Program-made: the position numbers and the translations under genes | Origin: a virus | Lineage: Duplodnaviria > Caudoviricetes | Direction: 5' to 3' (one strand) | IMG/VR virus record: IMGVR_UViG_3300020205_000903 | Span: 1-25,152 of that record | DNA length: 25,152 bases | Notes under the pieces: model-generated | Databases searched by the model: none | The model's input: only the letters and a program-made list of their open reading frames with translations | What the model was told of the DNA's origin: nothing | In this document: positions 14,963 to 21,292 of the stretch, in pieces | Layout: each line of letters starts with the position of its first letter | Numbering within the stretch: the first letter of the stretch is position 1

Positions 14963-16816
14963 TTATGCCAAACGGCGATCTGCGGCCCACTCATCAAGGT
15001 TGATGACCTGTCGCTTTTCGGCATCTGCTCGGGTGAGGAATTCATTATGTACAAACTTTCCGCCATACTCACCAAACTGGCAGATCTCTCTTGCTCTAAT
15101 CTCACAGAACCAGAGGGCCATAACAAGGTCTGTCTTGTTCTTAGTCTCTGGCGACCATGTAACTAACTGATCAATAAGTAAGCGGATGCCTTCGTGTCGA
15201 TCTGAAGGTAAGTGCATCAAGTTATCTCGATGGTGCTTACCATTGGATTCAACGCTACCAAATAGGGTAGCCATTGCAGCGACACCAAATCCAACATCCC
15301 ACTTATTTCTAGATGTAGTGTGTTCCCTAAGAAGCACACCACGACTTGCTAACCATTGCCGTAAATTCTCATCCTGTGTCAGATAACCCTGAAAGGCGTT
15401 TCGTTCAACCATCCATTCCGATGGTTTGTACTTTTCCGTAAATGTAGTGATGAGATCACGGATGGCTTGCGGTGACGGTTTAGTTATAGTTGCAGCATCG
15501 AGGATATATCTTTTCTTTCTCCTACGATCTACAGCTACGACAACTGCCGCCGTATCACCAACGATTGCTGGGTCAAGCCCGGCGATGATGGTGAGACCTT
15601 CTACTGTCTCGGGATGTCCGGGGTTGCCCGGAACGATTGGCCCGATCATTCTCATTCTGTCGATAGAACCTTTAACGCAAGTCATGTTGAAGGTTGAGTC
15701 TTCATCAACATCTGCTTGCTGGTAAACCATCGACCAAGTCTTTGGGTCTAATGCACTTCTACGCATGGATAGATACTTGCCATCCCAGCGTGGGTATAGA
15801 CCGTCTTCGTCTGCCTCTTCATCGCTACCCTGCCAAGGGCGGTCTGATTTAGGCCAAAGTGTTTTCCAGTCCTTCTGATCTTCTGCAAACTCTAGGACTG
15901 CTGGCATCGCCAGATATGTCCAAGGTGATTTACCTGTTGGGTATCTCTCACCGTTACGGAGTTCTCTATAGAGGTCAATGGAATCTACTCGAGTTCCAAG
16001 GACTAAAAGCTTGCCGGTAGGCCCGAGTCGAGTTAGGACTTCCTGTTGAATCCATCGAATCTGTTTTTCGTATTCGTGAGAGTTCGACATAGTCACACAG
16101 TCGTCTAGGATAATCAGGTCTGCTCTCGCACCGTATACCTGTCCTCCGATACCGATTGCTTGAATCGTAGGATCCTTCTGGTCTGAGTCACGCAGTTCGT
16201 CTCCGAGGTAGACTTGCGTGGCTTGCCATGTGGCTGACTTAGACTTGAAACCTGAGCCAGCAGCGTAAGCTAGTTGTAGCTTCTGCCACGATGGGTGAGT
16301 CAAACGCTGTTTAATAGCGTAGATAAATTCTGTTGCCTTCTGCTGTGACTTCGAGACAATCATGATACGGATGTTGGGATCCATGCAGATCCGATATACC
16401 GGATAGTCAATCGAGGTAGTCATGGACTTGGCGTGTTCTGGGGGCACATTGACCAGCACATACTGTGGTCGACCCTTTTCATATTGCATCGAGTCATGCA
16501 TCCACTCAGGGTCATTACCTTCAAGAAGGTTGATGATATTCATCTGATGTGGGAATGTGTCTGCTTCTAGATACTCCTTGCGGAAAGTACGGAAATCCAT
16601 CTCAAGGGATTCCTCAGACTGGATACGGCCATGCTTTGATCTAGCGGCACGAACCTTGTCTACTGTCTCCTTGAATTCTTTATCCGTGGAACGGTAGTAA
16701 TCCCAAAGCTTTGCTGATCTGCCGACCTGCCTCATGGCATCTTCGACTGTGCAGCCTTCAGTAATCAACCGGATTACTTTTGCTTTGATCTTAGCGGTCT
16801 CTTCTTGCTTACTCAT
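14963..16816 (-). CDS. terL: Terminase large subunit with an N-terminal HTH-like extension (start revised to ATG 16816, MSKQEE)
   Basis: Walker A variant VPPEHAKS, Walker B LIILDD, coupling motif GTR, RNase H-like nuclease motifs GLDPA and DLVMALW; GAGGAG SD. Confidence 0.92.
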   Translation of the reverse strand: MSKQEETAKIKAKVIRLITEGCTVEDAMRQVGRSAKLWDYYRSTDKEFKETVDKVRAARSKHGRIQSEESLEMDFRTFRKEYLEADTFPHQMNIINLLEGNDPEWMHDSMQYEKGRPQYVLVNVPPEHAKSMTTSIDYPVYRICMDPNIRIMIVSKSQQKATEFIYAIKQRLTHPSWQKLQLAYAAGSGFKSKSATWQATQVYLGDELRDSDQKDPTIQAIGIGGQVYGARADLIILDDCVTMSNSHEYEKQIRWIQQEVLTRLGPTGKLLVLGTRVDSIDLYRELRNGERYPTGKSPWTYLAMPAVLEFAEDQKDWKTLWPKSDRPWQGSDEEADEDGLYPRWDGKYLSMRRSALDPKTWSMVYQQADVDEDSTFNMTCVKGSIDRMRMIGPIVPGNPGHPETVEGLTIIAGLDPAIVGDTAAVVVAVDRRRKKRYILDAATITKPSPQAIRDLITTFTEKYKPSEWMVERNAFQGYLTQDENLRQWLASRGVLLREHTTSRNKWDVGFGVAAMATLFGSVESNGKHHRDNLMHLPSDRHEGIRLLIDQLVTWSPETKNKTDLVMALWFCEIRAREICQFGEYGGKFVHNEFLTRADAEKRQVINLDEWAADRRLA

Positions 16817-16825
16817 ATCTCTCCT

Positions 16826-16842
16826 CGCCAGCTTCGCTGGCG
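16826..16842 (-). promoter_or_regulatory. Perfect hairpin CGCCAGC-GAA-GCTGGCG abutting the terL Shine-Dalgarno
   Basis: 7-bp inverted repeat read directly; it ends where the AGGAG SD begins. Confidence 0.5.
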
Positions 16843-17048
16843 TGGTCGCCAAAGATTTTTCATTGGGTTTAGGGGTTCTGAAAAAGAACAGACTACTGGG
16901 CATTTACTAGGGGCTTTTAGATCGCCTTCGTTCGCTAGGGCTCACTCCGGCTCCCTAGAGCCGGGTAGTCGTCTAATTACTTTAGCAAGTAATTATCCTC
17001 CTACTATATATAAGCCGGGATAAATAGGTTTTATCCCACACTATGCCC

Positions 17049-17064
17049 TGTGATTTGTATCACA
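17049..17064. promoter_or_regulatory. Crp/GlxR-family binding site
   Basis: TGTGA-TTTGTA-TCACA is an exact match to TGTGA-N6-TCACA and lies in the divergent intergenic region. Confidence 0.65.
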
Positions 17065-17212
17065 TACTAGCCATTGTGTGTAAAAGTCCTGTTCAGAGCC
17101 TATTTCGCAGCTTAGATCCTATCAAAAATTTTTATTTGGGTACATATATACAGGGGCCCCAGCCCTATAAAGCACTCGGGTCAATTTAGCCCCCCTGCGT
17201 GTCTGACCCCCC

Positions 17213-17240
17213 TATGCCGATAACAGACATTATGTAAAGT
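17213..17240 (+). other. dif-like XerC/XerD recombination site
   Basis: TATGCCGATAA-CAGACA-TTATGTAAAGT: 11-6-11 layout with inner ATAA/TTAT; the right arm matches the E. coli XerD arm TTATGTTAAAT at 9 of 11 positions. Confidence 0.75.
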
Positions 17241-17333
17241 AGCTTTTACGGCGTGTCGGGGAGACTCGAGGCAGGGCAGACCCTCGGCAACTAGGCCTCT
17301 TTCAATGTTCGCCGTCTAAGTAATCGCCTAATA

Positions 17334-17467
17334 CTTGGGGCATTACTTGGCAGGGCTTGGCAGGTAATCGAGGGGGCAAGGCTTGGGGAATCGGCAGGGA
17401 ATCGGGCAGACCTTGGCAGACCTCGAGGCCTTGGGGTCTTGGGTCTTGGGTCTTGGCCTTGGGTCTT
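17334..17467 (+). repeat. G-rich short-repeat array (CTTGG and GGCAG units; GGGTCTT heptamer x4)
   Basis: GGGTCTT at 17434, 17441, 17448 and 17461; about ten CTTGG and several GGCAG copies, all on one strand. Confidence 0.75.
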
Positions 17468-17548
17468 GAATCTCTGGTATCTCTGAAAGCCTTGTAAATC
17501 ACTCACTTTCGAGAGGGATAAATACCGGCAACACGATCTCGGGAATGG

Positions 17549-17577
17549 TTGAACTCTTGCAGCTCTGGCCTTACCCT
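17549..17577 (+). promoter_or_regulatory. Putative housekeeping-sigma early promoter
   Basis: TTGAAC-17 bp-TACCCT; the predicted start (~17583) coincides with the beginning of the leader hairpin at 17582-17606. Confidence 0.45.
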
Positions 17578-17581
17578 TAGC

Positions 17582-17619
17582 GAGTGGGGGAATCTCTTCC
17601 CCACTCATTACCTACAGAA
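17582..17619 (+). promoter_or_regulatory. Leader cassette 1: hairpin plus ACCTACAGAA start-associated motif
   Basis: GAGTGGGG/CCCCACTC stem, then ACCTACAGAA (17610-17619), GAGG and ATG 17631. Confidence 0.65.
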
Positions 17620-17630
17620 TGAGGCTATAG

Positions 17631-18110
17631 ATGGACATCAAGACCGATTTACCTACTCACCTCGAGGCCAAGAATGCCCTCGATTCTCTTCTCAATTCAT
17701 TCCAAGATTCTCGAATGCTTGAAGAGGTAGCAATAAAGACCGCCACGATTGGAATCTCCGAGAGTGTGCAGATTCGAGACTATGCACTCGGGGCGATTGG
17801 AATCTGTTTAGATTCCGAGGATTCTCTTGCATTCATTACGGCGATTCAATTACTCGGGCAAGATTCGGCAGGACTCGAGGCGATTCGAGGGGCGTATCTT
17901 TACGAGTTGGGGCAGATTGAAGAGGCCAACAAGGCACTCGATAAGGCTCTCGAGTTAGTGAATGGCCACTCTCTCTCCTTGCTTCTCCGCCGAGTTATGT
18001 CGGCAGGTTGGCCACCTGCTTCATTCGCTTCAATGCGTAATCAGTTGCACGGCAAGGTCGAGGCAGGTCTGAAAGACCTCGAAGGGGTGTGTGTGAATGA
18101 AAGTAAGTAA
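17631..18110 (+). CDS. DUF4192-like (TPR-like helical) protein, 159 aa
   Basis: QIRDYALG...YELGQIEEANKALDKAL...HSLSLLLRRVMSAGWPP resembles the C-terminal pattern of actinobacterial DUF4192. Confidence 0.6.
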   Translation: MDIKTDLPTHLEAKNALDSLLNSFQDSRMLEEVAIKTATIGISESVQIRDYALGAIGICLDSEDSLAFITAIQLLGQDSAGLEAIRGAYLYELGQIEEANKALDKALELVNGHSLSLLLRRVMSAGWPPASFASMRNQLHGKVEAGLKDLEGVCVNESK

Positions 18111-18237
18111 TCCGTTTATTACTCTCCTCGATTCTGAAAGTGGCGAGGTCTTAGTCTTCGCCCCTCTTTCCAAGACTCGAATGAATGCCTTAGTGAAGGC
18201 ATACTCGAAGGCAGGTATCGAGGCCGTAATCGCTTAG
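18097..18237 (+). CDS. Hypothetical microprotein, 46 aa (not in ORF track)
   Basis: AAGGGGTG SD; MKVSNPFITLLDSESGEVLVFAPLSKTRMNALVKAYSKAGIEAVIA; ends just before a hairpin. Confidence 0.65.
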   Translation: MKVSNPFITLLDSESGEVLVFAPLSKTRMNALVKAYSKAGIEAVIA

Positions 18238-18249
18238 GCCGTAAAGTGG

Positions 18250-18280
18250 GGGCAAGGCTTTCGGGTCTTGCCCTTGCTTT
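18250..18280 (+). terminator. UUCG-loop hairpin, probable intrinsic terminator or processing site
   Basis: GGGCAAGGCT-TTCG-GGTCTTGCCC followed by TTGCTTT. Confidence 0.6.
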
Positions 18281-18320
18281 ATGTCTAAGGGAATCCCCTA
18301 GACATTCACCACCTACAGAA
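18281..18320 (+). promoter_or_regulatory. Leader cassette 2: hairpin plus ACCTACAGAA
   Basis: ATGTCTAAGGG-AAT-CCCCTAGACAT stem, ACCTACAGAA (18311-18320), AGG and ATG 18330. Confidence 0.65.
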
Positions 18321-20759: not shown

Positions 20760-20888
20760 TTGGTAGGCTTTGTCCTAGTCATACTCTTATTCTTCACTCT
20801 CCCTGTAGGGATAGCAGAGAATCAACCGCTACTAATAGCGATACCGATACTGGGGCTGGTAACAGCCCTACTGTGGAAGGAGAAGTAA
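20760..20888 (+). CDS. Two-TM membrane microprotein, 42 aa, TTG start (not in ORF track)
   Basis: AAGGGGG SD; MVGFVLVILLFFTLPVGIAENQPLLIAIPILGLVTALLWKEK; TAATG coupling to the Rpf-like gene. Confidence 0.6.
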   Translation: MVGFVLVILLFFTLPVGIAENQPLLIAIPILGLVTALLWKEK

Positions 20889-21292
20889 TGCATCACCGAT
20901 TCATAATCGGACTGGTGGCTTTGGGGTTGGCGATTTCGCTGACCCCAAACGCCCCAATCCACCTCGAAGTAAAACCTGTAGAGGTAATCCCAAAAGTCGT
21001 GGAGATTCCGGATTTATCTTTGGATCAACTACCTTTATCGTGGCAAAAATTGGCTATGTGTGAATCCTCTGGTCGAGTCAATGCTGTCAGCGGCAAACGC
21101 AAACAGTTCCAAGGGCTATTCCAGATCGAGTATCCCCGGACTTGGGTTGCACATGGTGGCAGCAGCGGCAAACCACCCAAGGATTCCACCATACTTGAGC
21201 AGTTCTATGTAGCTCTTCACATCTATGTTGATCGAGGCTCTAAGCCTTGGCCTTACTGTGGCAAATTCCTAAAGGAAGACTACGGCAAGTAA
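20888..21292 (+). CDS. Resuscitation-promoting factor (Rpf)-like lytic transglycosylase with an N-terminal signal/anchor
   Basis: WQKLAMCESSG...GLFQI...TWVAHGG...EQ...WPYC follows the Rpf domain pattern with the catalytic Glu and both Cys; hydrophobic N-terminus; AAGGAG SD before ATG 20888. Confidence 0.85.
   Translation: MHHRFIIGLVALGLAISLTPNAPIHLEVKPVEVIPKVVEIPDLSLDQLPLSWQKLAMCESSGRVNAVSGKRKQFQGLFQIEYPRTWVAHGGSSGKPPKDSTILEQFYVALHIYVDRGSKPWPYCGKFLKEDYGK

Follow-up and report, generated by a model that had tools for sequence, protein, structure and literature searches.

Apart from integration, the known exploitation of host Xer recombinases is the resolution of plasmid dimers. Phage P1 circularises its terminally redundant DNA through Cre/loxP. 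To our knowledge, the circularisation of phages with short terminal repeats and without a polymerase or ligase of their own is mostly assumed. The Xer hijackers known so far integrate (PMC5357621, PMC2731167, bioRxiv 10.1101/633727). Xer recombination at dif normally requires septal FtsK (PMC9226527), and in the mycobacterial Xer-cise method host XerCD excises directly repeated dif copies (bioRxiv 10.1101/758037, PMC4789726). A search of full-text literature, subscription journals and bioRxiv supplements being outside its scope, found no description of dif sites in terminal repeats of tailed phages. The site analysed here is real and selected and would represent a new form of Xer exploitation with a putative function. 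New are the actinobacterial podovirus clade carrying it, the polymorphism in inversion and presence or absence, and the host-wide spacer contrast.

The window, i.e. the whole stretch of 25,152 nucleotides that was analysed (IMG/VR virus record IMGVR_UViG_3300020205_000903), contains the dif-like site TATGCCGATAA CAGACA TTATGTAAAGT at 17213-17240, 28 bp with an inner ATAA/TTAT dyad (Table 1). The exact 11-6-11 dif layout claimed in the preliminary description is present, and its match of the right arm to the E. coli K-12 XerD arm (9/11) was reproduced by eye. About 1e-6 occurrences of the exact 18-base actinobacterial pattern are expected in the window from base composition. The core pattern matched nowhere else in the window, even with one mismatch allowed; such a loose core is not rare by chance, being present in 21 of 100 shuffled sequences. 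The site is intergenic, about 400 bp upstream of the start of the terminase large subunit gene, in the largest non-coding gap (814 bp), which extends to the divergent small ORFs. No sigma-70 promoter overlapping it was found.

Table 1. Features around the dif-like site, in positions of the window
Feature	Position	Strand	Remarks
Terminase large subunit	14963..16816	-	PHROG 38, E 3e-65; first gene after the predicted repeat
Conserved terminus motif	17132..17190	-	Common to cluster BF and phage E7 (Planktophila); terminase probably recognises or cuts here
Predicted 187-bp direct terminal repeat	17143..17329	.	From BF repeat-end homology and contig ends; once in the assembly, predicted twice in virion DNA
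XerC-type arm (TATGCCGATAA)	17213..17223	+	Core GCCGATAA invariant in 36/36 distinct clade contexts
6-bp central region CAGACA	17224..17229	+	Varies within the clade; C at its first position sets it apart from host sites
XerD-type arm (TTATGTAAAGT)	17230..17240	+	Identical to the Planktophila/Nanopelagicaceae arm; mean conservation 0.91
GGCAG-rich short repeat zone	17330..17470	+	Just outside the predicted repeat; in relatives clustered GGGCAGGG (KOPS-like) pointing into the genome
First gene of divergent small-ORF (early-type) operon	17631..18110	+	Weak TPR/DUF4192 similarity

Judged by its sequence, the phage site is an actinobacterial-type dif, as the suggested comparison with actinobacterial sites showed. 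The pattern GCCGATAA-N6-TTATGTNAAGT gave 120 loci in 3 of the 64 parts of a species-genome collection, 113 of them in records with Actinomycetota titles. It was present in 250 out of 301 genomes of the order Nanopelagicales, nearly always once, and the reversed-pattern control gave 0; this order was examined as the one containing a Planktophila MAG. The dif of closed host chromosomes lies about half-way along (648 kb of 1348 kb in G027, 614 kb of 1223 kb in G034). The phage arms match those of four Nanopelagicales/Planktophila-type contigs at 9-10/11 (XerC-type) and 11/11 (XerD-type) and those of four Mycobacterium contigs at 9-11/11 and 10/11. The closeness to the mycobacterial dif, stated previously, holds for the arms; the spacer is identical to those of both groups of contigs at only 3-4 of 6 positions. 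The dif of Frankia alni, given as CACGCCGATAATGCACATTATGTCAAGT by Kono et al. (PMC3025954), shares 9/11 and 10/11 arm positions with the phage site.

Terminase and portal are 50% identical to those of the cultured Planktophila phages E7 and F5, and 43-44% identical to those of the Streptomyces cluster BF podoviruses (Beephvirinae). Gene order, terminase (43-50%), portal (43-50%) and terminus motif are common to the window phage, cluster BF (PMC9753666) and E7/F5 (PMC10202952); unlike the window phage, FlowerPower and Immanuel3 (both BF) and E7 have no dif-like site. E7 and F5 lyse their host (PMC10202952), and some BF relatives are reported to form plaques with turbid halos (PMC9753666). Most of the sequencing runs containing the DNA are metagenomes from freshwater or lakes. 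Taken together, the kinship with lytic Planktophila phages and these runs make a host among the Nanopelagicales likely. No cultured relative of the DNA surrounding the site was found by blastn.

No PHROGs match to recombinase families was obtained among the 31 window proteins. Tyrosine and serine recombinases (PF00589, PF00239) were found in 0 of 5 relatives with an estimated completeness of 93-100%, and PF02899 in 0 of 2 phage genomes, in agreement with the earlier statement that no recombinase is in view. The closed relative G403 (40,174 bp, terminase 98% identical) encodes WhiB, a sigma factor, helicase, primase, resolvase and a Cas4-like nuclease. A Pfam scan of 46 G403 proteins, the head and virion genes being covered via their window homologues (PHROGs), found no DNA polymerase, ligase, Rep, repressor or partition family. 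An alternative in-frame start of the terminase gene lies upstream at 16903. The N-terminus of this protein has a weak similarity to a small-subunit-like HTH (PHROG 4102), and no separate small subunit gene was seen. Two hairpins upstream of the terminase (16930-17040) are conserved, with relatives showing compensating changes in them, and may be regulatory or packaging signals. An Rpf-type transglycosylase-like protein (20885-21292, + strand; PF06737 in the G403 homologue) is conserved across the clade and could act on the walls of dormant hosts. The ORF at 17631 was ruled out as a gene tracking dif, being present both with and without the site.

Variation of the site was followed in two sets. 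A dif-independent anchor gave 72 IMG/VR loci, of which 12 were dropped as unrelated sequence; of the remaining 60 clade contigs, counted with redundancy included, 31 had the site in the same orientation, 21 had it exactly inverted and 8 lacked it. The metagenome set (57 of 64 parts scanned, 120 loci, 76 dropped as unrelated) comprises partly the same contigs, and its 44 clade loci showed the same orientation 24 times, inversion 14 times and absence 6 times. The preliminary description had regarded absence from related phages as counterevidence; the site is in fact found in most close relatives. In inverted alleles the inversion comprises exactly the 28 bp between homologous flanks, and the 8 absent alleles hold unrelated sequence at this position. 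When mapped on a tree built from 41 terminase fragments, inversion of the site requires at least 4 changes and absence 2. The sister rows L298 and L325 have opposite orientations, and the sister of the window (L338) is without dif. Recombination between phages could be the source of part of this pattern. None of the relatives scored at a terminase identity of 50-60% has the site, and neither do E7 and two BF phages, so that it is a lineage-specific addition. Near-palindromic spacers (TAGCTA, TATGCA, CATGCA) are frequent in the inverted alleles L296, L300, L420 and L491, which may relate to the origin of the inversion.

Purifying selection acts on the arms and not on the spacer. Over 36 distinct contexts, conservation was 1.00 for the XerC core and 0.91 for the XerD arm, 0.73 for the spacer and 0.72/0.66 for the flanks, and the spacer length of 6 bp was constant in every site scored. 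The first spacer base is C in 31 of the 36 contexts, a state found in none of 401 host-order genomes and in 4 out of 120 loci of the wide genome sample. When the 14 distinct clade spacers are compared with the 150 host matches listed, one (TATACA, L418) is the same as a host spacer. The XerC-side half mismatches the hosts in most alleles; the XerD-side half (ACA) fits them in the window allele and not in several inverted alleles. Central-region variants of mycobacterial dif are reported to recombine with themselves and not with the wild-type site (bioRxiv 10.1101/758037). Use of the spacer for identification of the host, as proposed earlier, has to be rejected, because it differs between phages with 99% identical terminase and is mostly unlike all host spacers.

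The position of the site relative to the genome ends can be derived from cluster BF. FlowerPower and Immanuel3 have terminal repeats of 253 and 275 bp ending 370-400 bp before the terminase, and 253-bp repeats are described for the Streptomyces podoviruses of this cluster (PMC9753666). The BF genome order, from the repeat via the terminase to leftward small genes at the end, corresponds to the window layout read across 17143-17329. The BF repeat-end motif aligns with 17132-17190 and with phage E7, in a loose alignment of 42% mean column identity that put the repeat edge near 17144. Three contigs from different samples begin exactly at 17143; one of the three (L001/L281) helped to make the edge prediction, and the other two (L313, L451) were found afterwards. 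Two further contigs (L306, L342) end at 17329. The ends at both positions fall within conserved motifs and not at variant positions. They represent 3 of 17 (17143) and 2 of 10 (17329) contig ends in the gap, most of which lie elsewhere, and the null for such pile-ups is non-uniform, since contig ends also coincide at 16965 (2) and 17007/8 (2). This evidence on the terminus comes from assembled contigs, with L069 excluded as a spurious end. Contigs of 4 runs over 16300-18300 had only phage variants among the loose ends listed and gave no terminus signal; a depth rise near the site was rejected as such a signal because it sums related strains. The dif site very probably lies inside a terminal repeat, and virion DNA would carry a copy at each end in direct repetition.

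Our main reading, with a probability of roughly 0.5, is that host XerCD recombines the two terminal dif copies and thereby circularises or concatemerises the genome as an accessory route. In virion DNA, a dif site would lie about 70-90 bp from either end, the two being identical, in direct repetition and separated by 40 kb. Host XerC and XerD, as the identity of the arms suggests, would bind these copies, synapse the ends and exchange strands, resulting in a circle with one repeat or in head-to-tail concatemers. As both copies stem from one repeat and share spacer and orientation, either orientation would work and the spacer would be free to drift, and drift away from the host's spacer would prevent recombination between the phage and the chromosomal dif. 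The model would explain the central position, the free orientation, the free spacer and the non-host first base. It is also consistent with two XerC/D-type genes in 3 out of 3 host-order genomes examined, one of them about 14 kb from dif, and with such genes in 0/5 phages. Since about 1/8 of the relatives lack the site, the XerCD route is likely accessory; the ends of dif-less relatives may be joined via homologous recombination or via exonuclease and annealing across the repeat.

Several points argue against end joining. The site is dispensable, as 8 of the 60 IMG/VR contigs do without it, among them L338, the sister of the window, and an identical repeat of 187 bp is joinable without Xer. 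Its position in the largest non-coding gap could reflect free space. Furthermore, septal FtsK is normally needed, and the DUF3653 activator (PF12375) was found in 0 of 5 phage genomes. We take this family to be linked to XafT.

A possible answer to the need for FtsK comes from KOPS-like words. Of all 8-mers in the 400 bp beyond the site, the E. coli KOPS GGGCAGGG (PMC3384302) occurs most often, clustered just outside the repeat edge (including L280-L351); in 42 contexts, 79 copies point into the genome versus 8, with about 2 expected. In hosts, GGGNAGGG is polarised toward dif (8:0 and 9:2). The window itself has only GGCAGGG, at 17270, 17349 and 17393, and GGGCAGGG is not exact there. As the words belong to a wider GGCAG repeat family, are present in 3 of 5 dif-less contexts and are inexact in the window, the cluster is treated as a lead. 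A link to the inverted state (15/15 vs 10/22) was rejected since it follows the phylogeny. The BF phage Immanuel3 has one KOPS-like word in its repeat in the same orientation. In a far-reaching version of the end-joining model, which we consider speculative and unlikely, lytic tailed phages of several phyla acquired terminal-repeat dif sites independently and thereby hijack the whole FtsK-XerCD system of the host. FtsK would load on the KOPS cluster just inside the early-gene end and travel along the 40-kb genome to the far-end dif; XerD would be activated and the ends sealed. This would amount to circularisation free of a phage recombinase and ligase, with a private spacer shielding the host chromosome.

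Free spacer and orientation are equally expected if the site serves to separate dimers or catenanes, formed by circular phage DNA during replication, into monomers, possibly in a plasmid-like carrier state, its location in the repeat being incidental. Near-identical sites on actinobacterial plasmids fit this explanation, as does a phage that relies on the host polymerase and has a helicase, primase, resolvase and Cas4-like nuclease without any DNA polymerase found. We nevertheless regard it as rather unlikely, because a partition, Rep or repressor family is lacking in the closed relative G403 and because it leaves unexplained why unrelated phages place the site in terminal repeats.

The same freedom of spacer and orientation is also expected of a binding-only role, in which a XerC/XerD pair near each end forms a cap or roadblock to host nucleases, FtsK or SMC-type complexes without strand exchange. 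The proximity to both predicted ends and the conserved arms next to a spacer about as variable as the flanks are in line with such a role, and XerD of B. subtilis is reported to release SMC at the terminus (PMC11898615). The conserved spacer length, as recombination needs it, makes binding without exchange unlikely, although cooperative binding may need the same length.

The preliminary description had proposed that the circularised phage integrates at the host dif through XerCD, i.e. that the site is an IMEX-type attP of an integrase-free temperate phage. The lack of an own recombinase in 5 near-complete genomes, the fit of the XerD-side ACA of the window allele to hosts, the host spacer of the allele in L418 and the turbid-haloed plaques of some BF relatives speak for this. 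However, host DNA was found beside the site in 0 of 44 metagenome clade loci, all with phage sequence on both sides, and in 0 of 60 IMG/VR loci, the sets overlapping. These negatives hold at the assembly level, where junctions of abundant phages are rarely assembled and IMG/VR trims host flanks. Related prophages flanked by dif, which had been suggested as a check, were found neither in 401 host-order genomes, where a terminase search gave 4 weak or distant matches (the best at 48% on a contig without dif), nor at 150 host dif loci, which had no adjoining phage proteins except for one 36% match to an Rpf domain. Two dif matches each in G002, G005 and G187 were rejected as attL/attR, being strain duplicates. 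Known attP sites are described as keeping central homology on the active side, often with a degenerate XerD arm (PMC5357621), whereas both phage arms are canonical and most alleles mismatch on the XerC side. Considering also that G403 has no repressor or partition gene and that E7, of the closest cultured phages with a Nanopelagicales host, is lytic, integration and a temperate lifestyle are quite improbable. Thus, the actinobacterial dif, its conservation and the missing integrase remain of the earlier interpretation, with the resolution of circular multimers as a rival to the main reading; integration and the host-identifying spacer do not remain, and the context of a predicted terminal repeat had been missed.

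A decoy function, in which replicated copies titrate host XerCD and block chromosome segregation and division to the advantage of the phage, would go with canonical arms in any orientation and with any spacer; it is very unlikely, as there is one copy per genome unit where repetition would be expected and a terminal-repeat location would be unnecessary. A neutral relic of a single capture from a host chromosome, suggested by the close relatives without site, is hardly credible given arms that stayed invariant while spacer and flanks diverged and that were kept through inversion and across 86-99% terminase identity.

Unrelated phages place dif in terminal repeats or near the terminase, a convergence that speaks for the end-joining reading. 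The E. coli dif matches 359 phage records; the Vequintavirus HdK5 (MK373780) carries perfect E. coli arms around the non-host spacer TGGGTA in both copies of its 459-bp terminal repeat. Five distant phages (L028, L071, L038, L018/L055, L002/L009; terminase 25-36% identical) have a complete dif of the actinobacterial type at 0.5-1.9 kb from the terminase match, several adjoining terminus-like motifs by eye; L057 was left out of this count, its terminase match running toward the site. No PF00589 domain was found in the partial records of these five. Further dif-like matches are intergenic in Bacillus phage Jayan (L519:708-732, 1.1 kb upstream of the terminase) and in Punavirus 673R5 (L517:3001-3023). 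A 31.7-kb viral contig has three tandem dif-pattern matches at 29-bp spacing (L036:3001-3083), and a 47-kb viral contig (L648/L674) has a dif-like site at both ends, which may reflect an overlap in the assembly or an element flanked by dif. Leptolyngbya phage Lbo-JY46 was rejected as a carrier, as it matches the XerD arm only.

If the main reading is true, a tailed phage that is linear and apparently lytic would put host Xer to a third use, the joining of its ends. The clade most likely infects the most abundant freshwater bacteria and provides a natural experiment, with two orientations, many spacers and absence of the site in phages that are otherwise nearly identical. As cultured E. coli phages have the same layout, xer and ftsK mutants offer a direct way to test the idea. 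A dif-like site in a phage contig should be taken neither as evidence of lysogeny nor as a basis for spacer-based host prediction.

Chromosomal dif sites of Actinomycetota have the 11-6-11 layout in common with the phage site, but are located at the replication terminus, whereas the phage site has a spacer starting with C and is predicted to occur twice, once at each end of linear DNA. IMEX attP sites (CTXphi, VGJphi, TLCphi, GGI, gokushoviruses) resemble it in that a recombinase-free element carries a host Xer site (PMC5357621). These elements are described as filamentous, small ssDNA or islands; they integrate at dif, and their spacers retain partial homology (PMC5357621). The window phage, in contrast, is a tailed dsDNA phage whose site has both arms canonical, a spacer unlike the host's and either orientation, and for which no junction was found. 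Plasmid Xer sites (cer, psi, actinobacterial dif-like sites) recombine with themselves, and their spacer may differ from the host's as it does in the phage; the phage site differs in having no identified accessory-protein region and in belonging to a virion-forming element with linear ends. HdK5 is like the window phage in its perfect host arms, its non-host spacer, the central position of the site in a short terminal repeat and its membership of a lytic group, but it is an unrelated 139-kb E. coli myophage in which a role of dif is likewise putative. The nearest mechanistic analogue is Cre/loxP of P1, where a tyrosine-recombinase site duplicated at the ends of the injected linear DNA closes the circle. 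P1 is a temperate plasmid-phage with its own recombinase, whereas the window phage is proposed to use the host enzyme on a short exact repeat.
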